NCBI GenBank assembly: GCA_963714275.1
Contig: CAVQNT010000006.1
Coordinates: 288,001-352,000, forward strand
Origin: Candidatus Bathyarchaeota archaeon
Lineage (GTDB): Archaea > Thermoproteota > Bathyarchaeia > Bathyarchaeales > DTEX01
DNA: 64,000 nucleotides
Direction: 5' to 3'
The notes under the pieces were generated by a model. That model had not been told where the DNA came from and did not search any database. It saw only the letters and a list, made by a program, of their open reading frames with translations. Shown in pieces: positions 23,048 to 49,702 of this stretch; position 1 is the first letter of the stretch, and every line of letters starts with the position of its first letter. Position numbers and translations under genes: made by a program.

Positions 23048-23659
23048 CTAGAGGGTTTTGTGCTGATATATCTACCCTTGGCGGTTTACGAATCCCGAGG
23101 GTACGGAAAGATACTTTTTCGTCATTGATTTTAGGGCTGAAAAATGGTGCTGAAAAGGGTCTAAAAAACTCGTCTAGAAGAGAGTTGAAAGGGCTTGGAA
23201 TGTGGTTCACGGAAAGGTATGTTAACATTACTGGTTTGTATCCAGAGTCGGTTTTTGTGGTGATTCAGTATTTTGTGGAGGCGAATGTTGTTGAAGAGGA
23301 AAAAAGACCAAATTGTTGAGATTAAGCGTATAGAAGTTGAAATTAAGGATATTCAAGGCTGTTTTCCAGCCCAGATTATAGCACGCGGAAGCAAGCTTTT
23401 ACGTCCGTTTGGATCCCTCTTTCATCAGATTCTACGAGTTGCAGCCGGGAGACGAGATCCTAGTCACAATCACGGAAGCAAAACGTGAAAAAAGAGAGGA
23501 AACAAAATGAGGATAAACATTGTCATCAACGGATGGCGTGACCTTGCTAAGATGATATTGCGGGTTGCTAGTGAGCTTATTCAAGTCCGTTCGAAGGCCA
23601 AAAATAGCATTCCACAACTCGGTAAAAGGGGTTCCGTTAGGCGTTGCCTAGCTAGCTAG
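23041..23659 (+). CDS. Run of small hypothetical ORFs (23041-23319, 23273-23488, 23507-23659)
   Basis: Overlapping short ORFs; the last ends RCLAS* inside CTAGCTAGCTAG. Confidence 0.35.
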
Positions 23660-23744
23660 AGAAGGCTTGGCTCCCTACATCTTCTCGAAGCTTTATATCC
23701 GACATGGCATAGTTAAGAACAGACAGTTTAGAAGGTAAAATTGG

Positions 23745-24186
23745 ATGTCAGAGGGAAATATTGAGAGTATTATACGTGATTTTCGTGAAGCGATTGAAAA
23801 AGGGAACGTGGAGAAGACGCTCTCCTTCCTTACAGAAGATGTTGTCTGGGTCGTACCTGAGGGTACATTCAGAGGAAAGGAAGAAGTGAAGCGTTTATTA
23901 AATTGGTGGGCTCAAGTCGGTAAGACACACTTCAAGGATACAGGGATTGGAATTATGGTGAAAGGGAATAAGGCTGTCTACGAGTACATCGCAGAGGCTG
24001 AATCAAGGGAAGGAGCAAAGTATGAGATGCCTGGAATATGCATCTACGAGTTTAAGAATGAAAAGATCCAGAGTCACAGGGTCCTTTATGATAGACTCTC
24101 AGCTGCCAAGCAGTCGGCTTAAAGGGACAGTAGCCAAAAGAGTGGTAAACACCGTTGTGAACAGATGGGAGAAGGGATTACACTAG
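23745..24186 (+). CDS. NTF2/SnoaL-like protein (frameshift near C-terminus)
   Basis: LSFLTEDVVWVVPEGTFRGKEEV..IYEFKNEKI. Confidence 0.8.
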
Positions 24187-24325
24187 AACATGTTAGTTTC
24201 ATTTTTTTGTCAAATCTTAGCTCAGCTAGTATTTTTTGCTAGTTAGAGCTCAGGGTGTTTTAAAATTTTTTCTTCTATTGCAAGTTCAATGTAACTCTTT
24301 AGATTGCTTAATTCCTACCTGGTAA

Positions 24326-24601
24326 TTATGAGGTTCTGTTTGTAAAAGGTTCTTTATTCTTTCTAGTGTTGCTTGGATTTGGTTTAGGGTTTTTTGGTGG
24401 CTTAGGAGGATGGACATGAACATGGCGTCGGACACTATTGGCCTTGTTGCTGCTCCGAGCTGCTGAAGCGTGGCACCTGCACTCGTTCATCATTTCTTCG
24501 AAGGCTTTCTTGTCGTCGCTTCGTAAAGCATTAAGGAATCCCTGCCATTTTTGGATCTCCCGCTCCAGAATCATCCTGTAAGAAGGAACAGTCTTTCCCA
24601 A
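24326..24601 (-). CDS. Small conserved archaeal protein of the type usually encoded beside PolB2 (arCOG07300-like), frameshifted
   Basis: GKTVPSYRMILEREIQKWQGFLNALRSDDKKAFEEMM signature, recognised from memory. Confidence 0.5.
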   Translation of the reverse strand: MGKTVPSYRMILEREIQKWQGFLNALRSDDKKAFEEMMNECRCHASAARSSNKANSVRRHVHVHPPKPPKNPKPNPSNTRKNKEPFTNRTS

Positions 24602-24937
24602 CAGCCATCCACCGCAAAAGCACATTCGCCCCAGCCCAGCATTTAAAGCATCAGTGAAGAAGAAGGGAGGGGGATCTCTTCATCTTGTGGTTTAGTTGAG
24701 GGTAGCTGATTGAGGTGTTTTTAGAGAATTATTTGTACATAGTCTGATCGTGATCTGTGAGCCTTTCTGCTTTCTTCATCTAACGTTTTTATGAGGTCTT
24801 TTGTGAGGGCTATGGTAATTAGCTCAGCTTAGCAATACTGAGTTTAGATAAATTAATAGCAGACAAAAACGTTGACAGATACGTGAACTAGTCGCGTTAG
24901 CACACTTATGTAATTTAGTAAGGAAGCGACCAGCTAA

Positions 24938-27334
24938 ATGAACGACCATGATCATACGTTGGATGTAGGCACTGACACTGTAAGTGGTCTCAATATGGAT
25001 GAGGCTAAGAAAAGATTAGCCGAGTATGGATATAACGAGGTGCCTGAAAAGAAGACTAACCCGATTCTGAAATTTGCAACTAAGTTTTGGGGTTTGACCT
25101 CTTGGATGCTTGAGTTCACGGTCATCATGGAGTGGGTTCTCGGAAAATATCTCGAAGCCTACGTGATAGTGGTCCTGCTTATCTTCAATGCCGTGGTGAG
25201 CTTCATACAGGAGGAGAAGGCAAGCAGCGCAGTCGACCTTCTCAGGCAGAAGCTTGCCGTCAAGACGCGGGTCAAGAGAGGCGGAGCATGGATCCTCCTA
25301 CCCGCTAGGGAACTGGTCCCCGGCGACATAGTGCGTCTCAGAGCTGGTGATCTAACCCCCGCCGATGTTCAGGTTGTCGAAGGTCATGTGGATGTAGATC
25401 AATCCGCTCTCACAGGAGAGTCGCTGACCATTGAGAAGAAGATTGGTGACGTCCCTCTACTCAGGTTCCACGGTAAGTAGTGGCGAGATCACTGGCGTCG
25501 TCACAGCTACGGGGTTGAAGACGTATTTTGGGCGGACGGCTGAGCTTGTGCAGATTGCGAGGCCGAAGATGCATATTGAGGAAACGATAGCGAAGGTCGT
25601 AAGATGGCTTCTAGTCATGGTCGTCGCCTCAGTCGCGGTTGGTATGGGTCTTGCTTTGTTTAGAGGGATTGACCTTGCTGAGATAGCGCCCCTAATCGTA
25701 ATTTTGCTGGTGTCCGCTATTCCTGTTGCTCTGCCCACGATGTTCACTATCAGTATGGCTCTTGGCTCATTGGAGCTGTCGAGGAAAGGGGCGATAGTGA
25801 CGCGGCTCGATGCTGTAGAGGATGCGGCGTCTATGGATGTTCTCTGCGCCGACAAGACAGGGACGATTACCATGAACCGGCTCACCCTGGCCGACGCCCT
25901 TCCAGTGGGGCAGCACACGAAGGAGGAGGTGGTGCTCTATGGAGCCTTGGCGTCCCAGGAAGCGAACCAGGACCCAATCGACCTCGCCTTCATCTCTAAA
26001 GCTAGGGAGATGCAACTGCCAGTAGCGAGCTATGGTCAGGTCAGCTTTACGCCGTTTGATCCTTCAACACGTAGAACGGAGGCTTCCGTCAAGTTCGAGA
26101 ATGAGCAGCTCTACGTTGTTAAAGGGGCTGTTAAAACAATCATAGAACTCTGCAGAGACTGTCACGATGAACTCGGCAAGATAGAGCAAGACATCGACGG
26201 GTTTGTGGCGAAAGGCTATAGGATCCTCGCTGTAGCCAAGGGAGTTTCCAGAGAAGAAGTGGAGCTCATCGGAATAGCCGCTCTCTATGATAAGCCTAGG
26301 GAGGACTCGCCTCACCTCATAAGCGAGCTGAAAAAGCTCGGTATCTCGGTCAAGATGCTGACTGGAGATGCTCTCCCTATCGCAAAGGAGGTTGCTAGCC
26401 AAGCTGGGCTCGGAGATAAAATTAGCCGTATAACCGACCTGAAGAACAACCTTGACAATGAGAACACCTTAAAGACCATGGAGGAGAGCGACGGTTTTGC
26501 CGAGATCTATCCTGAGGACAAGTACCTGATAGTGAAGAGCTTGCAAGCTGGCGGTCACGTTGTTGGAATGACTGGGGATGGCGTTAACGATGCGCCAGCC
26601 CTTAAGCAGGCAGAGGTTGGCATAGCAGTTAGCAACGCTACAGATATCGCGAAGAAGTCTTCAAGCGTCGTCCTATCCCTCGAGGGCTTCGAAGGGATTT
26701 TCGCATGGTCGTAATCGGGAGGATGGTCTACCAGAGGATATCCTCTTGGACGATCAACAAGATCATAAGAACCTTCAAGCGGGTCGTCTTCATCGTCCTC
26801 GCCTTCATACTCACCGGCAGGTTCGTCGTCTCAACCTTCAACATGATTCTGCTGCTCTTCCTAAGCGACTATGTAACCCTCTCAATCTCAACAGACAAGG
26901 TCAGATACTCTGAGAAGCCCGAGAAAGAGAACACCATTGGCCTCGTCAAATTAGGCGTGTCATATGGGTCATTGATAGTCGTAGAATCCTTGCTAATCCT
27001 GTACATTGGGATGGGATATTTCGGTCTGGATTCTAATATCGAGAAGCTGCGGACCTTCATCTTCGTCTGGCTGACGCTGTCGGGATACTACACCGTTCTA
27101 TCAATACGGGAGAGGAAGCACTTCTGGGATTCGAAGCCAAGTCTATGGCTTACTTTAGCACTTGTCATCAACACAGTGATAGTATATATAATCTCTACGA
27201 TAGGTTTACCCGGGTTGGCTTCAATAACCGTCTTAGAGTTCGTCTTTCTGCTGGCTTACGGGTTCGTGTCTTGCCTTCTGATAAACGACTTGGTTAAGGT
27301 GCCCCTTACGAAGATATTCGATGTAGCGCTTTAA
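24938..27334 (+). CDS. Plasma-membrane-type proton-efflux P-type ATPase (P3A), two frameshifts
   Basis: YGYNE, LTGES, IPVALP, DKTGT, MLTGD, GDGVNDAPALK. Confidence 0.9.
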
Positions 27335-27351
27335 TATTGCTAGCTCACTAA

Positions 27352-27681
27352 TTATGGACGATTTGGAAAATAATAAGGTAATGTATCATATGATGAAGGT
27401 TCTGTTCCTTTATCCCTAACCCTTCGCTCTTCTCTATATTTACGTTTGGTAACTCTGATGACCTCTCCTTCTTCAATTACCCTGTAAGCCTCTGATAAGC
27501 CTCTTTGATGCAGAAACCTTTTTACAAATGCTTTTACACTCTTTGTCAACAATCTTTCTTCTCCTGCACCTAAAACTAAAGATTCACCCTTAACAGCAAT
27601 TGAAACTCGAATTCTTGACTCAAGAAAGTCAGAAAGATAATCCCGTTCTTCTTTTATTTCACTCACGTCAATCGTTATCAA
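27352..27681 (-). CDS. Ribosomal protein eL22 (L22e)-like protein
   Basis: ITIDVSE..LSDFLESRI..VKAFVKRFLHQRGLSEAYRV parallels the eL22 consensus TIDC..F.KFL.ERIK..KYL.KKYL....L...LRV. Confidence 0.55.
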   Translation of the reverse strand: MITIDVSEIKEERDYLSDFLESRIRVSIAVKGESLVLGAGEERLLTKSVKAFVKRFLHQRGLSEAYRVIEEGEVIRVTKRKYREERRVRDKGTEPSSYDTLPYYFPNRP

Positions 27682-27966
27682 TGCTAATCTATTCCATAAT
27701 AATTGAAATCTAAATATGTTAATATTTGCCTTTTGAAAAAACCGTAAAGCGGCAAGAAAAAAATCATTTCAATTAGAAATGGATATCAACAAAAGATAGA
27801 CAATCTCTGTGCTGAAAAAAAGGAAATTATGTTTAAGAATTGCCTAGGAAGATCACTTAAAGGCAAAAAGGATAACTAATATATGTTCTAGCGTCTTTTA
27901 AAAAAATGAAACAAAACGTCAATGTATTAGTCTTCGTAAAATGATAATGAAGGAAAAGAAAGGAAC

Positions 27967-29398
27967 GTGCAATCTTTTTCTTATACGATTGAGACTGAAA
28001 TTCCGTCTAACTATCGAAGTAAATTACTTGATTTCATTTATCAAAAATACATCCTTCCTCAAGAAAAACGATTTACAAACATTTTAAGAACACAAGTAGA
28101 TGGTTATCCTTCACTTTCTTTCACTACACTAGACCCGAACGGCAGGCAGGACCTTAAAGTTAAGATCAAAACAAGCGAGCCAATAAACGTGGAAATTGTC
28201 TTACTTGAAGAAACAGTGTCAGAGAAGCGTATCAGCCAAATGAAAGAAGACATAATCATCAGCATCGAACTGTTTGAAGAACAGATTAGGAAGAGCACGA
28301 TTTACTTTGCGTGGAGAGAAGGCGAGGAGATAGTCCCAGAGCGGATCCATGGAAAAGAAAGTAAACTAACTAACAGGATGTTTCTTGAAACGCAAATTCT
28401 TTTCTTTATGGTATTTATTGCCCTTAGCATGGTTTTATTTGTCATTTTGAATTGGCTAACACCTATTGTTTTGATGGCAATACAGTTTGTTTTTGTCTTC
28501 TACTCTAACAGGATTATTGCAAAATCGGGAGATTGGCGAATAACCGAAAAAAATTCTAAAATACACCTGCTTGAATATCACACGCCATTAGAAGATCATA
28601 ACGAGTTTAAGCGGTTATATTCCGGTAACAAATTGGTGGAGCTGAAGAGGGAGGTATATGAACAAACAATAGCTGAAGAAAGGAAGGATTGACTGCACAT
28701 CTGTTCATGAAATATTCACAAAATTTGGGTTGAAATGTGAACCAGAAGATTTTTCCACGAAAACCATAAACGTGTATCAATTAGTGAAAAGCACTGCAGA
28801 CAAGTTCGGCTTCCCAATGCCTGATGTCGTCGTATCCAACACTATGCTCCCAAATGCTGCAGCCTCTGGACCTAGCCCCAGTTGCGGCGTAGTTCTTATT
28901 ACAACAGGCCTTCTTGTTCAACTTGAGGAAGACGAAATACTCACCGTTTTAGGCCACGAATTCGGTCATTTAAAAGGTCATGACCCTTTACTTCTTTACG
29001 GTCTGACTGCGGGTGAATTCCTTCTCCGATTCTACGTGTTCTTTTTCCTCTTTCCTTACATTTTCAGCTCTTATCTTTTCTTCTTTTACTTCTGGGGCGT
29101 TATGACAGTCATATACTTTATAGCAAAGTTTTTCGAGGCTAGAGCTGACCTCACTTCCGCCATGGTTATAGGTCAACCTCAGGTCTTAGCCAACGCGCTA
29201 ACGAAAATAGGCTTTAGAAGACTTATAGTTGAACAGTTGCCTTCTTATCGCGTCCAAGAATGGATAAGCATGGACCCTCACCCACCCATCTACTTCAGAG
29301 TCAATAGACTGGAGAAACTTAAGGTTCCTGTAGAAGTGAAACATCCTTTAATTCAATCCGCCAAAGAAGTAATAAACGGATTCCTTACAAGCATTTAA
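27967..29398 (+). CDS. HtpX-like M48 zinc metalloprotease with N-terminal extension, frameshifted
   Basis: PNAAASG, GHEFGH, EARAD, HPPIYFR. Confidence 0.85.
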
Positions 29399-29612
29399 TC
29401 TTAACTCTGACATATACTCGCATATTGGGGAAATCTCACTTTTTATGCAGCACTGTCATTTTCTCATCATCTTCGGGTGTGCATGGGAAGCAGGCGGCAA
29501 ATTGTTTTGTAGATCGATAAGTGAGAGCTCCTCCAGGGAGTGCAAATTATTTAATATCCTTTATTCACATCTATTTTGTTGAGAGATTGCTCTTCTAATG
29601 TGGGTGAAATAG

Positions 29613-30590
29613 TCAGCTAGCTAGCTTGATGGTTACAGAGTGTCCTCCGAACTGTTCTCTCAGTGCGGAAAGTATTTTTCCAGTGTACGAAGGGTTGTCT
29701 TGGGATTCGATTCTGAAATTTACTGCTTCCTCAATAATTTTCGTCTTTAGACCCATTTCACGCGCTGTTTTTACAGTCCATTCTCCCTCGCCAGTGTGGG
29801 CTACCGTGCCAGAGACATCCTTTAAGTCTGCGCCATGGACTTCGAACGCCTTTCCCAGCCACTCCATGAGCCTCGACTCGATCACGCTGCCGTGGTTATA
29901 CACTTCCGCCACATCCTCAAGGTTAAGCGAGTAATCCGCATTCCTCAACACAGCAAAGCCTTCAGCTATTGCCTGCATTATTCCGTATTCTATGCCGTTG
30001 TGGACCATTTTCACGAAATGACCCGCACCTGAGCCTTCGAAGAACTGGACTCCCTGAAAAACAGCAACATCAAGATACAGTGGCAGCAGTCTTTCATAGG
30101 CTTCTGTTGTTCCTCCAACCATTAGGCAAGCTCCGCTTCTTGCGCCTTTAGGTCCGCCCGAAATGCCTATGTCCACAAACATTATACCTTTTTCCTTTAG
30201 CCTTCTTGCCCGTTTGACTGAATCCTTGTAGAAGGAGTTTCCACCATCGATGACGGTGTCTCCCTTTTCAAGATGGTTCACTAAGCCTTCCTTCCCAAAC
30301 AACACCTCATCAACAGCGTCTCCAGCCTTAACCATCAACCAAACCACTCGGGGCGTCTCAAGCAACCTCGCCATTTCTTTCAGCGTAACAGCTCCGACTA
30401 TGCCCCTTTCCATCAGACCTCTGGTAACCTCGATTGTTCTGTTGAACCCCACGACCTTCCATCCCTTGTCCACAAGGTTGAACGCAAGGTTCGAACCCAT
30501 CTTCCCTAATCCAACGATACCGAGTTCTTTTTTAAGCCCAGTTGACTCCCGCAGGTTTCTCTCTACGACCTTGGACTCGGATAAAACCAA
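29613..30590 (-). CDS. gnd: 6-phosphogluconate dehydrogenase (short decarboxylating type); apparently the C-terminal part of a Zwf-Gnd fusion
   Basis: GLGKMG, IDGGNS, GHFVKMVHNGIEYG, ALREQFGGH. Confidence 0.9.
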   Translation of the reverse strand: MVLSESKVVERNLRESTGLKKELGIVGLGKMGSNLAFNLVDKGWKVVGFNRTIEVTRGLMERGIVGAVTLKEMARLLETPRVVWLMVKAGDAVDEVLFGKEGLVNHLEKGDTVIDGGNSFYKDSVKRARRLKEKGIMFVDIGISGGPKGARSGACLMVGGTTEAYERLLPLYLDVAVFQGVQFFEGSGAGHFVKMVHNGIEYGIMQAIAEGFAVLRNADYSLNLEDVAEVYNHGSVIESRLMEWLGKAFEVHGADLKDVSGTVAHTGEGEWTVKTAREMGLKTKIIEEAVNFRIESQDNPSYTGKILSALREQFGGHSVTIKLAS

Positions 30591-32044
30591 GTCCTTTCCA
30601 GGTTCATATTGTACTAGAGGAACTAGCCCTTTTTTCCAGGCTTTCAGAATCGGATCAACGAATCTCCAAGCAGCTTCAACCTCCTCTATGCTTACGAAGA
30701 AGGTTTGGTCGCCACTACGCAGTCAAAAAGGAGCTTCTCGTATTCCTCAACGTACTGGGTTTTCCTCGATTCGTCCTTAAAGACACATCTAAACTTTTTT
30801 TCTCCAACTTCTGTTATGAATCCGGGTTCCTTCAACTGAAGATACATCTCGACCGACTCTTTCGGTTCAACAGAAAAAACTATGCGACTACCTAAGTGCC
30901 CTCTTAGTTCCTTCGGGCAAAGGCAATGACTAGGATGCTTCAGGTACACAACAACCTCCTTCTTTCGTGTCCCCAGCCTCTTTCCGCTTTCAAACAAAAT
31001 CGGGACGCCTTGCCACCTCGGAGAATCGAGAAAAGCCACGGTCTTGAAATAGGTTTCAGTGCTTGAGTTAGGTTGGACTCCTTCGACGTCCTTGTATCCG
31101 CTGTATTGCGCTCTGAAGGTAAGCTGGCAGATTTCCTTGTCCGTTGGTGTTCTCAGCCTTTGCAGAATCTTCGCACGGTTTGTTCTTACGGTTTCAGGTT
31201 CGAACCTGACTGGGTTGTCCATTGTTGTTAAAGCCAGCATCTGCAGGAGATGGTTTTGTCCCACGTCCCTTAGGGCTCCGACTGAATCGTAGAATTTGCC
31301 TCTTCCCTCAACTCCTATGTCTTCCAGCAGCCTAACCTCAATGTGGTCGACGAACTTATTGTTCCAAAAGCCCTCGAAAAAGCTGTTGGCAAACCTGAAA
31401 AACAGAATGTTCTGAACCATCTCTTTCCCGAGATAGTGGTCAACAATGTAGAGTTGTTCCCGCTTGAATAAACTGCATAGAATCCCGCAAAGTTTTCTTG
31501 CGGATTTTAGGTCGCTGCCAAAGGGTTTTTCGATTATGACTCTTGTCCAGCCTTCCTTTAGTCCGCAAGGTTTCGTTAACCCAGACTTGGCGAGGTTCCT
31601 GAACGTCGGTTCATAAAGGTTTGGCGGAACGCCCAGATAGAAGAGCTTGTTGGAGCAAGTTTTCCATTCATCGTCCACTTTTCCAAGCCTAGACGCTAGG
31701 GTTTTGTAGCCCCCAAGTTTCGTTACGAACCCCTTGTGATAGAAAAAGAGTTCAGAAAATGGCTTCGTCCGCGAGGAGGCTGTCTCTATAATATCTTTGT
31801 GCTCTTTGAGGACTTGCATCACGAAATTTCTGTAGTCAACATCGGAAAGCTCTTTTCGGGCAACGCCAATGACCCTGAAAAACGCAGGCAGTTTGTTCTT
31901 CTCAAAAAGGTGAAAAAGGGCAGGTAGAACCTTTTTTGCCATGAGGTCTCCGGTTCCGCCCAAAATGACTAAGACGGTCGGAAGGTTTTTTGATTTATAA
32001 TCTTGTTTTTTAGTTCCAAGTTTAGAAGTCTGCATTCCAGACAA
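30591..32044 (-). CDS. zwf: Bacterial-type glucose-6-phosphate 1-dehydrogenase (one frameshift near 30715)
   Basis: GGTGDL, EKPFG, DHYLGKE, RDVGQNHLLQ, TETY; C-terminal GDQTFFVSIEEVEAAWRFVDPIL lies in the gnd frame. Confidence 0.9.
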
Positions 32045-32250
32045 TGCCTCCTTAATACTCTTTTTTTAACGTTATTCTATGTTAATTTTTTCCTTAATTC
32101 ATTATCCATAACAATTTTTGCTTCTTTGCCCAAGCCTTCATTCTTCGATTAAGCGTCTATAACACTTTCTCGATTCAATCAAGGATGAACATTTGAATCC
32201 AAGTCATCAGGGTCGACGAGTGTTTTCGAGCCCGTGCAGTTCACCAGTTC

Positions 32251-32443
32251 GCTAGCTAGCTGTTATGAACTTCTATAAGGGTCTTAAGGGTATCCCTTAA
32301 GGGGTCTCCAAAAAACCGTCATAAATTTTTTTACCTTCGTTATACTTTTCATATATCGAGATTTCTAGACCCTTCACATTCTATAGATTTAGACCCATAT
32401 AGCCAAAAGCTTTATGAACGGGTCTAAAACCCTTGCTAGCTAG
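32251..32443. repeat. Structured non-coding element bounded by GCTAGCTAG copies, with GGGTCT/AGACCC repeats and a palindrome
   Basis: GCTAGCTAGC 32251, GCTAGCTAG 32435, TAAGGG-TAT-CCCTTA, TTATGAAC twice, five GGGTCT/AGACCC copies. Confidence 0.6.
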
Positions 32444-32477
32444 ATAATTCTTAGTAAAATCCATCGTAAGAGTACAA

Positions 32478-32753
32478 TCAATCGCGAGACCCTGACATTA
32501 ATCCAAGTTTATGTTCTCTCTCATGTAGCGTTGGCTGTTGGGTCCCTTGCTTTATTTCTGGCATTTTCTCTGGCCAGCCTATAGCCTTCAGCTCCATCAA
32601 CATTTTATCTGCTTCGGTGAAATTTTTTCTGGCAGCCTTTAGGGAGGCGTAGACTGTTGGCGGATCTATTTCGAGTTCTCGGGCGATGCGATAGGCTGAA
32701 TATCCTTTTAAATGAAGCTTAAGAATTGATAGCATCTGATTTGTGAGTCGCAC
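32478..32753 (-). CDS. Helix-turn-helix protein divergent from the portal operon
   Basis: KGYSAYRIARELEIDPPTVYASL. Confidence 0.7.
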   Translation of the reverse strand: MRLTNQMLSILKLHLKGYSAYRIARELEIDPPTVYASLKAARKNFTEADKMLMELKAIGWPEKMPEIKQGTQQPTLHEREHKLGLMSGSRD

Positions 32754-32857
32754 ATTACGTCTATTGTCACTATTGTTTTTATGGCTTATTATTAGTTCAT
32801 TTCAATAAAAGGAACTCCTAACAACCTTCTTTTACCGTTTCAACATTATTTTTTAGA

Positions 32858-34188
32858 TTGATTGATTTGGGTTTAAGAAAGAAATTTGTGGATGGCTTGA
32901 AGGTTTTTGTAGGACATAAAATCGCCACAGACGCCACTGAAACCATCGGCATCAGGGGGGCTGGAGCACAGAGCCAAGCAACTTTCGGCGACCCGATAAG
33001 TGACGCTGATCTTCTTTTCGCTGTTAAGAGGGAGCCTGTTGCTCACAGAATCGTCTTTATGGTTGCGCACGACATTTTTGACAACTGGTTCAGCGTTAAC
33101 GTCGTAGGCGAAAAGCAGGACACAAAATTTAATGATCAGATCCAAGCGGTTTTGGAGGATGAGGACCTTAATGCGAAAGCGGTCTTCACGGAGATGGCTG
33201 TTTACGAAAGGCTTTTCGGAGAAGCAATAATCGTCGTTGGATTCTCTGATTATGGGAAAGACCTGTCGAAGCCTGTTAAGGATCCTCAAAGCATCGAGGA
33301 CCTTGTTGCTTACAGTCCCCTCGAGTTCACTGTGCAATCTGCTGATGTAGACCAAGATCCGTAAAAGTCCTCGTTTTGGGCTTCCAGAATTTTACACGCT
33401 TTACCAGGGCAGCCAAAGGGTTAGGGTGCATTACAGCCGTGTGATCCATTTTGCCACAAGACTGTTAGATCATCCTTACAGGGGTCTCAGCGTCCTTGAG
33501 CCCGTGTATGATGACCTCACCGTCTTGCGGAACATCCGCTGGGGTCTTGGGCAAACAATTGTTCGTTATGGTAGCGGTTTCCCAGACATTTTGTTGAAGG
33601 GTAAAGACGCAGACAAGATTGATGAGTTTATTCTCAGTAAACAGATGGAGACCGTTAACGCCAGGACATATTTTGTGCATAACGAAAATCAAGAAGCTTG
33701 AGTTTAAGGGCGTAGGCGGAGTTACGCTTGACCCTGAAAAGTATTATGTGCCCATAATGGAAAGCATCAGCGCAGGCTCAGGGATTCCGCTGGCCATTCT
33801 ACGAGGTGCCCAGGCTGGAGCATTAACGGGGTCAGAGGTTAACGAACGGGAATATTTCAAGATTGTTAGTGACGCTCAAAGCCGTTACGAGCCTGGAGTC
33901 CGAGCCTTAATTGACATGCTTATTGAGTGTGGACAGATCCGCTGGTTCTACAATGTGCCTAAAAAGTATCGGATCAGTTGGGGAGGAGGCTTCGAGGTTA
34001 ACGAGAAGGACCGGGCTGCAACTCAACTCTCAATTGCACAGGCTTTGAGTGTCCGCTCGAACTGGATGACCTTGAACGAGATCAGGGCGTCCATGGATCC
34101 TCCGCTTGAGCCATTACCAGGACCACAGGGAGAAATCGTCCTTGGATTAGAGAAGTTACAGTCACAAAAATTGTTGTCGCCTGCTTGA
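32858..34188 (+). CDS. Viral portal protein (DUF1073-like), two frameshifts
   Basis: YERLFGEAIIVVG, VHYSRVIHF, GLSVLEPVYDDL, SGIPLAILRG, TLNEIR; first gene of the head operon. Confidence 0.85.
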
Positions 34189-38449: not shown

Positions 38450-38923
38450 CTCCAATAAAAAAGAAGATTTTAAAAGAGCACTATTGAGTGGGAAACAAAA
38501 CATAGCATACTCGTCGTAAGGGAAGACGGGAAATTCTTTCAAGTTTTTAGGATCCTGAAATTACGAGGGAAAATTAGTCCTTGGACCTGCTGGAAACAAA
38601 ACCGCATCTGCAAAAAGACACTGCACAGACCGCACTTAACCTGCCTCAATTGCAGAATCAGAAAATACGTGAACAGCGAAATACCTCAGACATTACAGGT
38701 TATCCCCTACATCTTGCTAGTTCAAACTAACCGTAAAAGATGGAAAAAAGCAGTCTGCAAGAAGCTGCTTTCAATCATAGAATTTCTAAGTTAAAAGTTA
38801 TGAAAATTTAAGATAAAATCCAAACTTCTCTCCGTAAAAAATAAAGAAAACACACAATGCAATAACATTTTAAATATCAAAAAAGAGTAATTCGGATTAA
38901 TCAAAGTAAAAGAGTGAATTGGA

Positions 38924-39277
38924 ATGTTTATAAATATTGTTAGATGGCGTGTTCCTAAAGCGAATAGTAAAAAGCAATTTGAGGTCTGGCGTGAAATTAT
39001 GGACTATCAGAGGTCTCATCCAGAGAAGGTTTACTACACTAGGTCTCGGTTCTTCACCTTTTCTGAAGAAGGGTCGTCTGAGGAAAACTGGATGTTTCTA
39101 GATGAGTATGAGGACCGTGAAGATTACGACAAATGGATGAAGGCTGTGCGTGAAGACCCAGAACTAATGAAACTCATGGACGATTGGTTCCCCAAATGGG
39201 ACGCTTTGATTGTTCCTGGGTCTAGGAAAGGAGAAGTCTGGACTGAAGTTGAGAAGCTCAGGGTCGAGTTCAAGTAA
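38924..39277 (+). CDS. Dimeric alpha/beta-barrel (DUF1428/NIPSNAP-like) protein
   Basis: RWRVPK..WMFLDEYEDREDYDKWM. Confidence 0.55.
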   Translation: MFINIVRWRVPKANSKKQFEVWREIMDYQRSHPEKVYYTRSRFFTFSEEGSSEENWMFLDEYEDREDYDKWMKAVREDPELMKLMDDWFPKWDALIVPGSRKGEVWTEVEKLRVEFK

Positions 39278-39416
39278 GTATGTGCGTTAAAAGTTAGCTG
39301 ACTCCCGAAATTATTAATCATGATTATCTCTTTTTTGCATTAAAGTTGTGTTGCGTGGTAAGTTATTTAGGTTTAGTTCAATAAAATTTTTATTTTTCAA
39401 TACTGAATAAATATTT

Positions 39417-39845
39417 ATGCCTTCAGTTAAGAGGATGTTTCTGGTTTGGCAAGGAAACTATCGTTTCACAGCGAAAAATGAAAAGGGGCTTTCTGTTAAT
39501 TTTGATGCTCCCTTACCAAATGGTGGAGAAGAAACTGCACTATCACCAATGGAGAATGTACTAGCAAGTTTAGCTGCATGCAGCAGTTATCATGTTGTAT
39601 CGATATTGAGAAAGAAGAGGCAAGATTTTTCAGGTTATTCAGTAGAAATGACAGCGGATAGAAGAGATGAACCACCGAGAATATTTACCAACATTCAGCT
39701 CAAGTACATCATTAAAGGAAAAAACATTAGTAAAGAGGCTGTTGAAAGCGCAATAAGACTTTCTGAAGAAAAATATTGCTCAGTCGGTGGAATGTTGAAG
39801 AACGCAGTAAAAATAACATCTTCATATGAGATATCTAAAGAATAA
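39417..39845 (+). CDS. OsmC/YhfA family protein
   Basis: SPMENVLASLAAC..LSEEKYCSV. Confidence 0.88.
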   Translation: MPSVKRMFLVWQGNYRFTAKNEKGLSVNFDAPLPNGGEETALSPMENVLASLAACSSYHVVSILRKKRQDFSGYSVEMTADRRDEPPRIFTNIQLKYIIKGKNISKEAVESAIRLSEEKYCSVGGMLKNAVKITSSYEISKE

Positions 39846-40057
39846 TAAGCCGACTAAAATATTGACTGCGAGAGCTACAGTTTTCCAAATTACAGGAAGT
39901 ATCTAGTTAAACAATAAGAACTTTCTTCCTTTGTACATCTTGTTCTTAAGCTTTGTTTCGAAGATATTCAAGTACATAATTGACATACTGGGTGGGGGAG
40001 TAACAGTTATATATATAACAATGTTACATATATGGCAATTAGGAGGAGATTAACAAA

Positions 40058-42837: not shown

Positions 42838-42925
42838 TCTCTGGATTGTGGAAAAATAAATAGAAAGACATCCACAACTCTAATGTAACCTCGAATATGT
42901 TACGCTTGGGCATTATATCTTTTAG

Positions 42926-43249: not shown

Positions 43250-43324
43250 ACACGTGATTCCCTCATTCTATCGCAATCACAGACCGTATACAAGTCAGGT
43301 ATGACTGTAAGTCGAGTCAACTAG

Positions 43325-43582
43325 CTAGACCCTTAAAATAGCATCTTCGAGATTTTTCTCGTCAAAATCTGAAGGTATCTTGATTTTTCCATTTACAACC
43401 ACGCACGTGTCTTGTACTCCGTATTTCGACGCTTCAGATGACTTGATTGACTTTGTTTGAACTTCTACCGAATCTTTGAACTTCAACGTTACATGTACCA
43501 CTTTTTCCATGAGCGGCGCGAAATTGCAGACACAAGAGCCTAGAGGCACAAAGACTTCGACCTTGATTTTATTATTCTTCAT
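43325..43582 (-). CDS. Small thioredoxin-fold protein
   Basis: KVEVF..SCVC..KYGV..VVVNG. Confidence 0.6.
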   Translation of the reverse strand: MKNNKIKVEVFVPLGSCVCNFAPLMEKVVHVTLKFKDSVEVQTKSIKSSEASKYGVQDTCVVVNGKIKIPSDFDEKNLEDAILRV

Positions 43583-43585
43583 CTT

Positions 43586-44280: not shown

Positions 44281-45057
44281 ATTTATCAAACTCCAGAAGT
44301 TTATAGATTTTCGACGACAATGTCTCAGCTGCTGTTTCGTCGGTATACACCTGTACCACATTGAATTCTTTATCTATAAGAACAATGGTTCCATCATAGA
44401 TCGAGTATATTACATAAGCATCGATGATGTCCAATGTTCTCATCAGCATAGTCATTTCCCAAGTACCAAGTGATACCGTAATCTGTCGCGAATGAGTGCA
44501 AGGTCGGTAGTTGGGCATGTTGACACCACGACGGTTACTATAGTAACAGAATTATTCCACAATAAGTATTACATACAGTTTTTAATTGCTTAAGTTGATT
44601 GTAATTTATAACTTGATATTGTCCATAGCAGCCTAAAGTCATGAAATGAATCAGCGATTACATTTCCACTATATTGATTGAGCGAAAATTGAGTTCCGTT
44701 TATGTCTTTCAGAGAGAAGTTTGGAGCCGAGCCTGTTAGCGAGGATTGCTATTCGTTTCACCTCCAATTATTGGAGGAAGCTGAACTTGGTATTGCCAGT
44801 ACTCATACGCCTATGAATATTAAGGCTAAACAGACAAATTCCGACAATTATTTTGCCTTTAGGCCAACTTTTCGGTTTTTTCTTCTTTGATATTTTTCTT
44901 TTAAGCATAATTTTTGTTCCTCAGCTATTAGCGCGCGCCCTAAGCCTTCTCGTCGTTATCTCCATTCATGTCATTACTTTTCGAACAATCGATTTTCCTA
45001 TATTCATCCCAGTTATTGATTCGATAAATACCCAAGGCTCATATCACATAATTCGAT

Positions 45058-45479
45058 TTATATGACTCGTATCTCAGGTTCAATTACTAATTCAGCTTTG
45101 ATTGATTGGGCTACAAGACTGAACTTTTCTGCTAACTTTAAAGCACGTCTAACCGCCTCTTCTCTGCAGTTACGAACTTTTATCTTTGGTCTAAGCATCA
45201 TCTTTTTGAAAACTGAAGTGCGGTCCAGTAGATCCTCAACAAGCCTTCAGCCTCACACTCGTAGGAAACCAAGTCAATCTTCAATTTCTCAACACTCCAG
45301 ATGAACATCAACTGGAAACACATATTCAAAGCACCTACAAAGGCATCCTCAGGGGTAAGCACATTGGGTTGGCCATATAATGCTGCTGGAGCTGAGAAAT
45401 CCATTCGTGCGCCGTTGCTACACGTTATCTCCCCTATGTGACCTCCCTTCCAAATGGCTGTCGTCTTGTATGATGGCAT
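45058..45479 (-). CDS. OsmC-like protein, frameshifted
   Basis: TPEDAFVGALNMC; C-terminus continues in an adjacent frame. Confidence 0.7.
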
Positions 45480-45507
45480 GTCTCCTCATCTACCTCTTGT
45501 GAAGATA

Positions 45508-45894
45508 TCATCCATAGCAGTCAGCAATCTCTTCAGCCACTTTTGAGGCTGCTTCTATTCCCTCTTCGTTTAGTTCTCGCCTTGGACTAGGATTCTTCAC
45601 ACCCCATTTTTTCAGCAGATCGGAAACCACTATTGAACATGCTGTCTTCCCACTGTATTTCTCGATGGCTTTCTTAGCACATCTCTTCTCGCAGCCATCA
45701 ACCGCTATGGTTGGGAAGTACTTGGCGAACATCCTCTCGCCCTTCTCTCCAATTGAGAAGAGAGGAAGACAGATCGTTACAGTATTATCAGGTCTCAATT
45801 TTTCTAAGACAAAGCGGGTGGCTATCCTAGAGATAGTTCCCTCGACACAGCATTCGCCACTGCAGGAGACAACTCCAATCTTAGGTGTGCTCAT
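45508..45894 (-). CDS. DGC-domain putative zinc-binding protein
   Basis: SCSG, TICL, IAVDGCEKRCAKK. Confidence 0.85.
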   Translation of the reverse strand: MSTPKIGVVSCSGECCVEGTISRIATRFVLEKLRPDNTVTICLPLFSIGEKGERMFAKYFPTIAVDGCEKRCAKKAIEKYSGKTACSIVVSDLLKKWGVKNPSPRRELNEEGIEAASKVAEEIADCYG

Positions 45895-46301
45895 GAAACA
45901 ACACCTTTATGGTTCAATTCATCTACCTTCAATGCAATCTTCTCAGCCAATATTCTAGATAATTTTCGTCCATCCTCGTCAAGAAAGGTTACACCATTAG
46001 GTTTTAGGTTTCTGTTTTCCCTAAGAATGTCGACAACTCTGAAACTTGCGACTAATTTGGCGTCTGAGAGTTCAAGGTTTTTCTTTGCGCATTCATTAGG
46101 ACAGCCGTCCACGGCGATGCATCGATGAGATTTAACTGAGCGTCTGGCATCTTCATCGCCCATTACGAGTAGGGAGAGACAGAGGGTGTCTGTTTCATCT
46201 TTCTTCAGGTCTTCGACAACACAGTATGTTGCATCTCTACTGATGGTACCGAAGGACTTCCCTATGCCGCTGCAGGGAATAATTAAGACTGGATCAGACA
46301 T
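45891..46301 (-). CDS. DGC-domain putative zinc-binding protein
   Basis: IPCSG, TLCL, IAVDGCPNECAKK. Confidence 0.85.
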   Translation of the reverse strand: MSDPVLIIPCSGIGKSFGTISRDATYCVVEDLKKDETDTLCLSLLVMGDEDARRSVKSHRCIAVDGCPNECAKKNLELSDAKLVASFRVVDILRENRNLKPNGVTFLDEDGRKLSRILAEKIALKVDELNHKGVVS

Positions 46302-46304
46302 GTT

Positions 46305-46773
46305 CTATACCTCCTTCTTACTACTCTTCCTCAGTTCATCCTTAATCTTTGATTTCATCAACTCAAAGTATTTCTCTGCTGTCATGAGATGCTGCTTATC
46401 TTCTTCAAGATTGGAGGGAGAGATTAGGACAAGCCAGCCTTCTCCATAGGGATCCTCGTTAATTAATTCAGGCTTATCATTCAGTGTTGCATTGACTTCT
46501 GTAATGGTGCCGTCGAAAGGAGAGACTATTGACACGACTGCCTTTATTGTTTCGAAACTCGAAATTTCATCTCCTCGTCTTACAGTCTTTCCTTTTTGTG
46601 GAAGTTCCACGAATACGGCGTCTCCTCCTCGTCTTTGGAGAAAGTCAGTTATGCCGATTTTGGCTTTGCCATTTCTCAATCTCAATCCAGACATCATTCT
46701 CCGTGTAGAGAAGACCTTTTTTTACCGTGAAGATGAACTTGTCAGCTACTTCCTGATAAAAATCATCACTCAT
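46305..46773 (-). CDS. Glycine cleavage H-like lipoyl carrier protein, frameshift near N-terminus
   Basis: IGITDF, ETIKAV (lipoyl Lys), PELINEDPYGEGWL. Confidence 0.85.
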
Positions 46774-47024
46774 ACTGGTCACTTCAAAACATTATTTGGG
46801 ATTAAGACTGTTTTTTCTTTGCTTGACAATCGAAGCAGTAATCACTGTCAGAGTTTGTCCAGAAGACTTTACCGCAGTCTGGGCAGGTTGCTTTTCTTAG
46901 TAAGTCGTTCTTTGGAGGACAGCTGCTCGAAGTAGGTCTTGTAGGTTTTGTGTGCAGGCGCATCCTTTTTGTGTCTCGTTTTTAGACATCTCTCTTAGCC
47001 TCTTTGGCGTTAGGAGATTATAGA

Positions 47025-47083
47025 TATTAATATATTTAAATTTATCGAATTATTGCATTGAATCAAAATATTTAAATATATTG
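47025..47083. promoter_or_regulatory. Divergent TATA boxes with candidate ArsR operator
   Basis: ATCAAAATATTTAAATATATTG at 47062-47083 resembles ATCAATAGATTTAAATATTTAGAT at 47574-47597. Confidence 0.45.
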
Positions 47084-47238
47084 TACAAGGCAAGATAGTA
47101 TTGAAGAATTTTACTGATGTGCAACGAAATGCAGACTAATGGAGAAGCAAAAGGAGCACTAAAAGGCTTGAGAGGCTTGTCTGCTCAGGTTTACGACCAG
47201 AAGAGGACCTGGAGAAATACGCGATTGAACTGAAGACT

Positions 47239-47550
47239 ATGGCTGATGAAGCAACAGATGAGAAAACGATTGATACTAAGACACGACTCTTAAAGGCGCT
47301 GGCCAATGAAACGAGACTGAAGATGTTGAAACTCCTCAGCAAGAGGGAAATGTGCGTCTGTGAGTTGACAGTCGCCTTAGACTTAACCCAGCCAACTGCA
47401 TCCCATCATCTCAATATACTGGAAAATATGGGGTTGATAAAGGACAAGAAGAAGGGAAAGTGGGTATTCTACAGTGTTACCAACCCTGAATTAACCCAAC
47501 ACTTCTTCGACTTCCTAGGATTAAAAAGTAAATCCAAAAAAAGATTCTAG
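47239..47550 (+). CDS. arsR: ArsR/SmtB family repressor
   Basis: KALANETRL, EMCVCEL, QPTASHHL; adjacent to acr3 and arsM. Confidence 0.88.
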   Translation: MADEATDEKTIDTKTRLLKALANETRLKMLKLLSKREMCVCELTVALDLTQPTASHHLNILENMGLIKDKKKGKWVFYSVTNPELTQHFFDFLGLKSKSKKRF

Positions 47551-47573
47551 TTTTTCATAGCTCAATAGTAGAA

Positions 47574-47597
47574 ATCAATAGATTTAAATATTTAGAT
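47574..47597 (+). promoter_or_regulatory. acr3 promoter TATA box / candidate ArsR operator
   Basis: TTTAAATA within an imperfect ATC..GAT palindrome ~50 bp before acr3. Confidence 0.45.
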
Positions 47598-47643
47598 ATG
47601 ATAAGTCTAGCTAAATCCATGATTGTAAGAGGAATCTTAGTGA

Positions 47644-48679
47644 ATGGCATCCGCAACTCAAGAAACTGAAGAAGTAACTCTCGGTATTTTCGAAAAATAT
47701 CTCACGCTATGGATAGCAATATGCATCGTCGTTGGTCTACTCTTAGGCAGGTTCTTACCCCAGTTTGGTCAGTACTTAGACTCTCTGAAGTTCGGTCAGA
47801 TATCGATCCCCATCGGCATACTTCTCTTCCTCATGATGTATCCGACCGTTGTCGGCATCAGCTTCAGCGACGTCAAGAAGGCGACCAAGTTCCCAAAGCC
47901 CATGCTAATCACAATAATCGCCAACTGGGTTATAGCCCCACCACTAATGGCACTCTACGCAAACTTTTTCCTCAAAGGAAACCCACAATTCATCGCAGGC
48001 GCAATTCTTCTAGGGATTTCGCCATGCACCGCCATGGTCCTCTGGTGGATAAAGATGGCTCGAGGCGACCTCGGCCAAGGCCTAGTAAACACGGCAATCA
48101 ACGCCCTTCTTATGATTGCACTCTACGGCACCGAAGCTGCCTTCTACTTGGGGGTCAGCAGTATACCTGTCCCTTGGGACCTTATCGTTTGGAGCGTCAT
48201 ACTCTTCATAGCTGTCCCAGTAAGCCTCGCAGCACTCACCAGAAGGACTCTTCTACTTAGCAAAGGCGAGGCTTGGTTCGAAGGACGATTCAGACCAATA
48301 CTTAGGAAAAATCTCGATCATAGCCCTACTCACAACCCTCATAGTCATGTTTTCACTGCAAGGAGAGATAATTCTCACCCAACCTCTCACAGTCGCTCTA
48401 ATCGCCGTTCCCCTCCTGGTCCACTACGCATCGATGATAGCTATCACTTATGGTGCATGCTGGTTTACGAATCTTGACTATAAATCCGCAGCACCCACCG
48501 TTCTCATTGGCTCAAGCAGCCATTTTGAGGTTGCGATCGCTGTCGCTACAACCCTCTTCGGTCTAGGATCTGGTGCTGCTCTAGCCACCGTAATAGGCCC
48601 TTTGATGGAGGTACCCCTTATGATTTCACTAACGAAGTTCTCTGGCATACCAGAGGCAAATTTCCCAAATCTAAACTAG
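47644..48679 (+). CDS. acr3: ACR3 family arsenite efflux transporter, frameshifted
   Basis: FEKYLTLW, MMYP, NWVIAP, SPCTAMV, SSHFEVAIAVA, GPLMEVP. Confidence 0.92.
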
Positions 48680-48725
48680 GAAAATAATTAAAATTTAAAT
48701 AGAAGGGAGAAAAAGGTGAGAATTT

Positions 48726-49484
48726 ATGGATAAAAAGAAAACAAAAAATGTTGTTAAAGAGAGATATGCATCAATTGCTCAAACTAAAGGTTCCTGTTGC
48801 TCATCCTCCTGCTGCGATACTAGAGATCTCACTGAAATCGGGAAAAAAGTAGGATACACTGAAGCCGATTTGAGAAACGTGCCTGAGGCTGCGAACATGG
48901 GTCTTGGCTGTGGTAACCCAGTTGCATTGCGTCTCTTAAGAAAGGAGAAGACTGTCCTAGACCTGGGTTCTGGAGGCGGAATCGATGTCTTTCTTGCAGC
49001 CAAGAAAGTCGGGTCCAAGGGAAAGGTCATCGGTGTGGACATGACGGATGCGATGGTTAAACGAGCTAAATTGAATGCTGTCAAGAACGGTTATAAAAAC
49101 GTCGAGTTCAGACTGGGCGAGATTGAGAAGCTTCCCATTGACGATGAATCAATAGATGTTATCATCAGCAACTGCGTCATCAACCTCTCAACAGATAAAG
49201 ATCAGGTATTCAGAGAAGCTTATCGCGTCCTGAAGACGGGTGGTAGGCTCATGGTCTCAGATTTGGTGACTGAGGGTGAGCTTCCAGAAGAGGTACGGAA
49301 AAGCTTCGACGCATGGGCATGCTGCATCGGTGGCGCCCTAGAGAAGCAACAGTATCTGGAAAGTATCAGGAAAGCAGGTTTCAAAGACGTTCAAATACTC
49401 TCAGAGGTAGCCTACGATATTGATGTATCTAGAGAGTTGAATGGAAAGATAACGAGCGTTCATGTTGAAGCCTACAAGAAGTAG
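48726..49484 (+). CDS. arsM: Arsenite S-adenosylmethionine methyltransferase
   Basis: GLGCGNP, LDLGSGGGID, ISNCVINLS, WACCIGGAL. Confidence 0.93.
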   Translation: MDKKKTKNVVKERYASIAQTKGSCCSSSCCDTRDLTEIGKKVGYTEADLRNVPEAANMGLGCGNPVALRLLRKEKTVLDLGSGGGIDVFLAAKKVGSKGKVIGVDMTDAMVKRAKLNAVKNGYKNVEFRLGEIEKLPIDDESIDVIISNCVINLSTDKDQVFREAYRVLKTGGRLMVSDLVTEGELPEEVRKSFDAWACCIGGALEKQQYLESIRKAGFKDVQILSEVAYDIDVSRELNGKITSVHVEAYKK

Positions 49485-49702
49485 ATGGCAACAAAAAACG
49501 TGCGTAATAGACGAGTTATACGCTACTAACATCGTCTTTCACAATAGCTTGCTAACCGTTAATTGAGCCTTTTTACTAGCTCACTACAGATTTTATGACT
49601 CTTACTTTAAGATAAAGACTTTAAGATGCAGAATCATAGAGTCCTGATTATAGATTATTTCGCCAAAATAAGTTAAATATAGTCTTATTTACATAGTTTG
49701 TT

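Follow-up and report, generated by a model that had tools for sequence, protein, structure and literature searches.

Why should one short palindromic word recur where unrelated genes meet? The question is raised by a stretch of 64,000 nucleotides (nt) from Candidatus Bathyarchaeota archaeon, hereafter the window, which covers C6:288001-352000 of assembly G000 (2.64 Mb in 10 contigs, denoted here by the prefix C; 91% complete), and in which an AGCT-based motif family typified by CTAGCTAG sits at gene borders in two blocks of cargo genes. An earlier reading of the sequence, the original prediction, saw these sites as the scars or targets of a recombination process that stacks gene units, integron-like though without attC structure. 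The first half of that proposal is supported, in that the motif marks the joins of independently assorting segments (84 of 381 block ends beside it, against about 22 expected); the integron-like system is not supported. We posit, tentatively and with less than even confidence, that the plastic parts of this genome undergo a sequence-specific break-and-rejoin process, of which the AGCT motif is both hotspot and scar.

Motif copies and junctions in the window

All ten copies on which the original prediction was built are present, at 23648, 24216, 24819, 27339, 29611, 32251, 32435, 39294, 43315 and 49576, and an eleventh, TAGTGAGCT at 23569-23577, can be added to its list. CTAGCTAG itself occurs six times in the window where 0.56 copies are expected (standard deviation 0.67, largest 2), a count reached by none of 100 dinucleotide-preserving shuffles. 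The lack of the doubled motif that had been remarked for 1-22 kb is borne out, and extends to 49.6-64 kb: neither region has a family site of at least 9 nt, and only isolated 8-mers occur there. Equally confirmed is the observation that a motif occupies the 17 bp separating the P-type ATPase stop (27334) from that of a convergent small gene (27352); the label 'eL22-like' is not confirmed for the latter, whose protein has no Pfam or NCBIfam match. Three open reading frames (ORFs) do terminate on a stop codon supplied by the motif, namely the 6PGD gene (IKLAS*), ORF 23507-23659 (CLAS*) and the thioredoxin-like gene 43325-43582 (TAG inside CTAGCTAG), the first two sharing the ending LAS*. Five of the ten listed sites, together with the additional one at 23569, fall at most 10 nt from the end of an intragenomic homology block. 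The sites, and two units lying between them, are given below; motifs carry no strand.

23569-23577, motif TAGTGAGCT: homology to a paralogous provirus flank (C6:60820-61460) stops at 23565; the partner runs on without the motif
23648-23659, motif CTAGCTAGCTAG: gives the stop of ORF 23507-23659 (CLAS*)
24216-24229, motif CTTAGCTCAGCTAG: about 95 nt past the stop of a SnoaL-like gene (23745-24122)
24819-24832, motif TTAGCTCAGCTTAG: bounds the P-type ATPase unit on the left; C7:195077-195193 is homologous up to 24830, where C7 reads TTAGTCAGCTTGC
24833-27338, plus strand, P-type H+-ATPase unit: ORFs 24938-25480, 25431-26714 and 26705-27334
27339-27350, motif GCTAGCTCACTA: fills the gap between the convergent ATPase and small-gene stops; homology to C7:195224-195628 begins at 27349
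29611-29625, motif AGTCAGCTAGCTAGC: replaces the natural 6PGD C-terminus and gives the stop IKLAS*; homology to C6:530461 begins at 29631
29631-32250, minus strand, 6PGD-G6PD unit with a 3' fragment of the upstream gene: an arbitrary-ended segment with a motif at each side
32251-32260, motif GCTAGCTAGC: truncation point of the gene fragment; homology to C6:530771-530917 ends exactly there
32435-32443, motif GCTAGCTAG: 175 nt beyond the previous motif, immediately left of the provirus head module
39294-39303, motif TTAGCTGACT: opens cargo block 2 on the left, 20 nt past the point where gene 38924-39277 stops
43315-43328, motif AGTCAACTAGCTAG: gives the TAG stop of the thioredoxin-like gene 43325-43582 (minus strand)
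49576-49586, motif CTAGCTCACTA: closes cargo block 2 on the right, where the provirus tail module starts

For the ATPase unit (24833-27338), the paralogous locus C7:195193-195224 carries 30 nt instead, between motif-like ends, and homology stops at both motifs; contigs of the public sequencing runs X3 and X6 carry this short, C7-like form of the locus. The 6PGD-G6PD segment has a paralog (C6:530461-530917) that spans both segment ends, with flanks that continue as coding DNA and lack the motif, and with an internal 2.15-kb deletion showing a 9-nt overlap. The window copy has the motif-derived IKLAS* in place of the final five 6PGD codons, where the motif-free partner continues LKKADAKKRS*. At 39304, homology to C3:3089-3679 stops right after TAGCTGACT, which is identical in both copies. 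The 49576 motif lies inside a homologous block and reads CTAGCTCACTA in the window and TAGTCAGCTA at C2:273852, a pair of insertions/deletions (indels) at positions C4 and G8 of the motif, amid flanks that are about 80% identical.

The motif-at-block-end pattern recurs in two independent assemblies of relatives: in G004, on contig C31, the ortholog of the small gene (window 27352-27681) adjoins TAGCTAGCTAG at the same end, and in G002, on contig C44, blocks mapping to four G000 loci are parted by TAGCTAGCTA-type sites. Contigs from four public runs offer one joint of 39377 to 39957 with AGCTGGCTAGC between, which at a depth of 2.6 and with a side of 33 nt is too weak to count. As a separate point, the H+-ATPase (24938-27334) is read as three overlapping ORFs, and an additional A follows 26702/26703 in contigs from four public runs, so the break is either a real frameshift or a homopolymer error of the G000 assembly.

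A genome-wide family with a strict grammar

Genome-wide counts were made against gene calls of our own, crude ones in which the longest ORFs were scored by codon usage and which leave 22% of the genome intergenic. The enrichment holds at this scale: CTAGCTAG occurs 108 times, 90 of them in intergenic DNA so defined, where an order-3 Markov model expects 7.5. Higher-order models come near the observed count only because the overlapping 6- and 7-mers are themselves members of the family. Among intergenic 8-mers GCGCGCGC ranks first, followed by AGCT-based words including GCTAGCTA, AGCTAGCT, GCTCAGCT, AGTGAGCT and AGCTGACT, and the palindromes enriched in intergenic DNA belong to two families only, (GCTA)n and (GC)n. 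Among 10-mers of the AGCT family, GCTAGCTAGC is the most enriched, with 39 copies for 0.38 expected; the (GC)n words GCGCGCGCGC and AGCGCGCGCT have observed-to-expected ratios above it.

When overlapping words are merged, 1056 sites remain, 314 of them at least 10 nt long, and 49 of those 314 have their midpoint in a called gene. Sites measure 8-28 nt and are spaced from about 100 nt to more than 10 kb apart (median 3.1 kb). A compact notation for the family is TAG(C)T(S)A(G)CTA, in which the three bracketed C/G positions are optional and symmetrically placed; it also occurs as (GCTA)n runs. The full form, TAGCTSAGCTA, is present 52 times where 0.67 copies are expected. Its nine possible internal single-base deletions are very unevenly represented: only those of C4 (48 copies), S6 (45, giving TAGCTAGCTA) and G8 (44) are common, the other six having 3-13 copies. 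Internal substitutions reach 0-5 copies each; G3>A, with 11, is the exception. At the centre stands C or G, an A or T being found there four times each, and TAA/TTA centres are some 13 times rarer than TGA/TCA centres. Beyond this core, the outermost T and A are loose and the flanks unconserved: eight positions on either side are at background composition, and 48 oriented copies of one 10-mer have no common flank.

On the (GC)n runs themselves, they are the most over-represented intergenic words (GCGCGCGC 63 copies for 1.35 expected, GCGCGCGCGC 14 for 0.05); they often adjoin AGCT motifs or sit within repeat modules, and block ends do not coincide with them.

Motif sites coincide with the ends of homology blocks

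Does the pattern seen in the window hold across the genome? A self-comparison gave 1789 non-self alignments, and those of at least 80 nt and at least 70% identity supplied 1894 distinct ends. Of these ends, 77 lie at most 5 nt from a site of at least 10 nt, where 11.0 are expected on shifting the ends by 100-1500 nt (maximum 19 in 200 trials). A motif is present in 142 of 424 intergenic regions that contain a block end, and in 161 of 1829 that do not. Within motif-bearing spacers, block ends fall at most 3 nt from the motif in 84 of 381 cases, against a null mean of 22-23 and a maximum of 37-38 in 200 permutations, and five control classes of repeat show a coincidence of about two-fold or less (ends at most 3 nt away, with the null mean):

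AGCT family: 84 of 381, null mean 22.6
(GC)n: 4 of 65, null mean 2.3
(TA)n: 0 of 42, null mean 1.3
(CA)n: 12 of 133, null mean 5.6
(GA)n: 14 of 157, null mean 6.5
AT palindromes: 15 of 232, null mean 8.8

Of the 90 motif sites that stand at block ends, 18 face a partner copy with a motif and 72 a partner copy without one, a proportion not expected from reciprocal site-specific recombination. The partner's breakpoint lies inside a called gene at 13 of these sites, near a gene edge at 14 and in intergenic DNA at 63. Six sites have paralogs on both sides, which allows the parents of the junction to be compared: two of these motifs are in neither parent copy, and the other four are matched by a motif at or near the boundary in one parent.

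The sites are hypervariable

In paralog alignments of at least 90% identity, motif columns differ in 29 of 171 cases (17%), other intergenic columns in 1076 of 23413 (4.6%) and coding columns in 4.3%; the motif sample is small, and each paralog pair is counted from both sides. Around six of the ten variable motif cases listed are C4, S6 or G8 indels. The same holds for a 9.1-kb inverted duplication of 98% identity (C2:80457-89565 and C2:962456-971573, almost 0.9 Mb apart), in which motif sites differ by paired 1-nt indels, e.g. TAG-TGAGCTA against TAGCTGA-CTA. Of the 29 motif sites covered by paralog alignments, not one faces an empty site as a clean insertion.

Distribution in the genome and the genus

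Per kilobase, sites number 0.87 in tandem, 1.2 in convergent and 0.9 in divergent spacers, with some excess at the 3' ends of genes. Along the genome they are over-dispersed (chi-square 287, 130 degrees of freedom), being clustered in low-GC stretches and missing from long runs. For the hottest zone, C5:160-180 kb, the genus offers no synteny, just scattered single-gene matches on many contigs of genus mates; the motif-free stretch C2:600-620 kb is almost wholly colinear with the same genus mates. Equal frequency in core intergenic DNA, as expected of a general terminator or chromatin-protein site, is thus not what we find: the motif is rare in syntenic core.

It is also specific to the lineage. 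TAGCT(N)AGCTA occurs 101 times here (reversed-word control 7), as against 17 times in G002, 5 in G004, 2 in G001 and 3 in G005 (controls 1-3), relatives whose assemblies are fragmented and possibly lack variable regions. High CTAGCTAG counts in G034 and G028 were considered as the same phenomenon and rejected: in the loci fetched, G034 has eight of nine sites of at least 9 nt in long ORFs, and G028 none.

A break-and-rejoin process?

How might such a word come to stand at so many joins? We posit that DNA would be cut at AGCT(S)AGCT with a stagger bracketing the central CT(S)AG. The usual outcome would be rejoining of the same ends, leaving either a duplicated CTAG unit or a gain or loss of one nucleotide, both at the ends of the overhang (C4, G8) and at the centre (S6), which is not palindromic. 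Cutting as G^CT(S)AG^C, with a 5' overhang, leads one to expect the three labile positions: C4 and G8 would be the overhang ends, prone to nibbling, and S6 the sole position that is not self-complementary when the ends of two sites pair. Fill-in of the form without S, followed by rejoining, would yield GCTAGCTAGC. Occasionally a motif-bearing end may instead be joined to another DNA end at an arbitrary position, with the consequence that genes, gene fragments, promoter-like repeat modules and provirus modules would abut at the motif; such joining would explain the truncated genes, the partners without a motif and the restriction to tolerant DNA. Cleavage at the motif, its stagger, the joining route and a dedicated nuclease are all elements that we infer. 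Deletions of the microhomology type, with direct-repeat overlaps of 7-10 nt, are found in paralogs (C6:530779 / window 29951-32104; C7:178723-181073; C2:942126-942932), and show that end-joining-type repair operates in G000.

In its narrower form the proposal is more doubtful, a possibility rather than an expectation: AGCT(S)AGCT could be the recognition and cleavage site of a putative break-and-join system, peculiar to this lineage of Bathyarchaeia, which captures and reshuffles arbitrary-ended, gene-sized segments, without integron, transposase or homologous recombination. The motif itself belongs among the dispersed short repeats that mark genome rearrangements, a known kind; that a new break-and-join system lies behind it has a fair chance.

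Several observations weigh against a break-and-rejoin process. No nuclease, recombinase or end-joining factor is tied to the motif, and Ku was not found in the 91%-complete genome. The motif is absent from both outer borders of the island that holds the cargo blocks (described below), and stands at the edge of only 2-3 of 13 paralog indels. In the examples inspected, the breakpoints of motif-less partners showed neither CTAG/AGCT nor microhomology, so that the arbitrary end would not be a product of the same cutter. The position of the motif beside a gene can be kept, as at 49576 and C2:273852, at 39295 and C3:3670, and next to the small gene in G004; such constancy across paralogs and species fits a gene-end element travelling with its gene. 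The scarcity of substitution variants could equally reflect purifying selection on a protein-binding site. Moreover, the junction statistics are built on our own crude gene calls and on the paralogs of one assembly.

Should the motif mark points of cutting and rejoining, it would give a sequence handle on how uncultured archaea remodel their accessory genome. G000 is rich in gene fragments and swapped units though the usual insertion sequences (four families searched) were not found, and what drives illegitimate recombination and gene capture in archaea, a long-standing question, would become directly testable. Perhaps we are looking at a natural counterpart of restriction-enzyme-mediated integration that builds islands of stacked genes. 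Were it a DNA-binding site instead, the motif would still be unusual as a regulatory element, being a 10-nt word of which three positions are specifically labile.

Alternative explanations

The main rival is a protein-binding site under selection: regulatory punctuation (an operator, a chromatin boundary or a gene-end signal) that travels with accessory units, and that would stand at block ends only because surviving recombination tends to respect unit borders. We consider this unlikely, although it would account well for a palindromic site isolated in intergenic DNA, for a strict grammar nearly without substitution variants, which resembles purifying selection, and for the position held next to the same gene in paralogs and in G004. 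Genes of the HTH_45 family moreover lie at most 300 nt from motifs in 13 of 22 cases, compared with 21% of all genes. Against it, most genus mates have the motif at counts near background (2-5 copies, controls 1-3), the spacing of its half-sites varies by 0-2 nt, sites change within 98%-identical duplicates, and the motif occurs at truncated genes and at junctions absent from both parents. Its density is equal in tandem, convergent and divergent spacers, its placement relative to the winged-helix genes is not fixed, and none of the seven sites in 23-33 kb has a terminator-like hairpin.

Two narrower versions fall with these points. HTH_45 proteins were rejected as the binder for want of a fixed place of the motif relative to their genes, and a transcription terminator was set aside on the equal divergent-spacer density, the lack of a strand link and the fact that none of five terminator-like matches in 23-33 kb is at a motif. 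The HTH_45 family comprises 22 small winged-helix proteins (e.g. C2:797395-797781 and C2:334148-334417), several of which are encoded in repeated integrative elements that also carry tyrosine integrases and a 99-aa protein family (window 24326-24625).

Cassette capture, which comes nearest to what the original prediction had in mind, strikes us as distinctly unlikely. An integrase, integron-like or CRISPR-like with gene-sized inserts, would insert at the motif, duplicate it and so stack units; block 1 is indeed a row of 0.2-2.6-kb units parted by motifs, the ATPase unit swaps with a 30-nt filler between motif-like ends, and the arbitrary-ended 6PGD-G6PD segment looks captured, with a motif at both sides. 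The genome also has seven Cas1 and 14 tyrosine recombinase matches over cut-off, many in hot zones, and an element on C4 built around a Cas1 gene carries a motif at one extremity. However, the site is small, its flanks are unconserved, attC-like structure is lacking, and the window is without an integrase: no recombinase domain was found in its 93 ORFs, and the nearest integrase, at C6:369715, is 18 kb past the window end, with another repeat as its site. Units are found in both orientations, and truncated genes are included among them, which dismisses integron cassettes in the sense of whole genes in one orientation. Motifs bound few of the paralog indels, as noted above, and Cas1 does not keep company with them in the genus (G002 has 17 motifs and no Cas1 match, G001 two motifs and one match); with a copy number that does not track motif abundance, Cas1 was rejected as the enzyme. 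A CRISPR array, which has direct repeats of 24-48 nt and spacers of 25-70 nt, can be discarded on the irregular spacing of sites, from about 100 nt to more than 10 kb, and an Rfam scan of the window matched no family. The C4 element is 6.2 kb long, with 187-nt inverted ends (C4:99061-99246 and 105041-105221) around a full-length Cas1 gene (C4:100381-101202); these ends are copies of an AT-palindrome module with low-complexity arms, and the motif stands at the outer tip of one of the two ends.

Improbable, in our view, is a transposon footprint or target duplication at CTAG or TA, left for instance by a miniature inverted-repeat transposable element, with CTAGCTAG representing two 4-bp target copies after excision. 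Runs of (CTAG)2-5 do occur, and 48 of the 109 AT-palindrome cores of a dispersed intergenic repeat have a motif at most 300 nt away. Yet DDE_3, DDE_Tnp_1, TnpB and Y1_Tnp gave no match in the 91%-complete genome (further transposase families were not searched), no clean insertion was seen among the 29 sites, and the commonest forms have a 5-nt unit or are non-palindromic, rather than being simple target duplications. The AT-palindrome modules can likewise be rejected as carriers, just 28 of the 314 motif sites being within 300 nt of a core. REP (repetitive extragenic palindromic) and BIME (bacterial interspersed mosaic element) repeats were rejected too, as the sites are too short for hairpin units and Y1_Tnp was not found.

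That the motif is a stop-codon insulator, selected to end translation or fused frames at unit borders, seems very improbable. Each of its invariant triplets TAG, TSA and CTA reads as a stop codon on one strand or the other, three window ORFs end on a stop that it provides, and sites are in excess at gene 3' ends. The original prediction had pointed to stops in all six frames; this is true of the 12-mer CTAGCTAGCTAG and atypical otherwise, just 27 of 314 sites stopping all six. Furthermore, the stop-richer strand coincides with that of the upstream neighbour gene just 53 times out of 106, TAA/TTA centres number four each against 52 for a C/G centre, and divergent spacers are equally motif-dense, all of which tells against the insulator.

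A compositional accident or assembly artefact is largely refuted and deserves next to no credence: CTAGCTAGCTAG resembles the six-frame-stop linkers with which contigs are joined, and a full-text search lists several pangenome papers that contain the string, but most sites are variant forms rather than this linker, paralogous copies of 80-98% identity carry motifs, they also stand at block ends in G002 and G004, which are independent assemblies, related joints appear in contigs of other public runs, and enrichment is far over Markov and shuffle expectations. A DNA uptake sequence or Chi-like word, typically very abundant, enriched in the core, common to related species and often orientation-biased, was rejected as well, given 314 sites that lie mostly in non-syntenic DNA and near-background counts in most genus mates.

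Comparison with known systems

Where would the motif fit among described elements? A full-text literature search found no description of a natural AGCT/CTAG-repeat junction motif. As in integrons, for which archaeal examples have been reported, unrelated gene-sized units are stacked here with a recurrent border sequence. The integron attC site is an imperfect hairpin of some 55-140 bp with R and L boxes, recombined by an adjacent IntI, and its cassettes mostly face one direction. Unlike this, the motif is an 8-17-nt site with random flanks and no IntI nearby, its units occupy both strands, many of their ends cut through genes, and the partner is usually without a site.

The PeSL cassettes of T4-type phages are promoter-stem-loop elements. 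Like these, and like promoter-bearing intergenic repeats such as those of haloviruses HF1/HF2 (PMC7230728), the motif is a short conserved intergenic element that flanks variable genes at points of modular shuffling. Elements of both these types are longer (tens to hundreds of nucleotides), directional and regulatory, and are shuffled by homologous recombination between copies. The motif, on the other hand, is 10-11 nt, has no orientation and is often in only one of two compared copies.

REP/BIME repeats share with the motif a short palindromic form, intergenic placement, hundreds of copies and a link to rearrangements. REPs are 20-40 nt, hairpin-forming and accompanied by a RAYT (Y1) transposase, whereas the motif is too short for a hairpin and Y1_Tnp was not found in the genome. 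The AT-palindrome-cored intergenic repeat of G000 consists of longer modules, from which the AGCT motif is separate as a 10-nt word: it caps 48 of 109 such cores, yet 286 of the 314 motif sites are not within 300 nt of one.

There is a mechanistic likeness to restriction-enzyme-mediated integration and to the 'cut-grow' expansion of restriction sites by thermophilic polymerases, both laboratory phenomena. In these, as we propose here, a staggered cut of a palindrome, fill-in and joining would give site duplications and site-flanked inserts; indeed, GCTAGCTAGC and GCGCGCGCGC are the products expected on filling in G^CTAGC and G^CGCGC. One difference is that no cutter was found in G000. Eight N4/N6-methyltransferase matches are present, of undefined specificity, and the ORFs beside those at C2:292.4 kb, C5:127.6 kb and C6:356.4 kb are first candidates for genes that track the motif; no endonuclease was identified, and no C5 methyltransferase was found in 13 genomes. 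We know of no natural genome-wide case of either phenomenon, and natural restriction sites are normally avoided. Haloarchaea and their viruses, for instance, avoid CTAG, on account of a restriction system linked to a CTAG methylase (PMC7230728). This avoidance is the opposite of the enrichment in G000.

The island and its surroundings

Window positions 1-20 kb are core DNA, colinear in six of six genus mates at 70-90% identity. In four of four loci fetched from relatives (G002, G004, G001 and G005), window position ~21,930-21,988 joins DNA homologous to C6:370,345 onward, from which it follows that everything from 21,988 to past the window end is a genome-specific island:

Window 21988-64000, no strand: left part of the island (whole: C6:309,988-370,345, 60.4 kb), with both cargo blocks and provirus modules

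The island is flanked by a direct repeat, ATAGAGCA[A/T]TCAT, one copy at either end, and has a tyrosine integrase at its right end (C6:369715-370170), the attachment site of which is this different 12-14-nt repeat without the AGCT motif. Inside lie a decayed provirus head (32.9-38.6 kb) and a tail with terminase (49.5-62.8 kb), as do the two cargo blocks. The island as a whole mixes decayed provirus modules, cellular-type genes and a second integrative element; its portal gene is split (32858-33364 and 33619-34188), and no relatives of the provirus were found in viral contigs with the tail-module protein 50050-50502 as query.

Among public sequencing runs, 21 contain at most 16% of the words sampled from window 23001-33000, and no RNA run is among them. 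Window 38676-40009 has very high contig depth in public sediment runs (summed up to 473) over gene 38924-39277 and the OsmC gene, from which it follows that other abundant organisms of those samples commonly carry these two genes. Reverse transcriptase families were looked for in the genome and not found. Elsewhere in it, C6:391363-391531 exemplifies a repeat dispersed in up to 18 partial copies, which is about 168 nt long and has no relation to the AGCT motif, and C2:1-80000 combines a GC fraction of 0.50-0.54 (genome mean 0.43-0.44) with zero motif sites.

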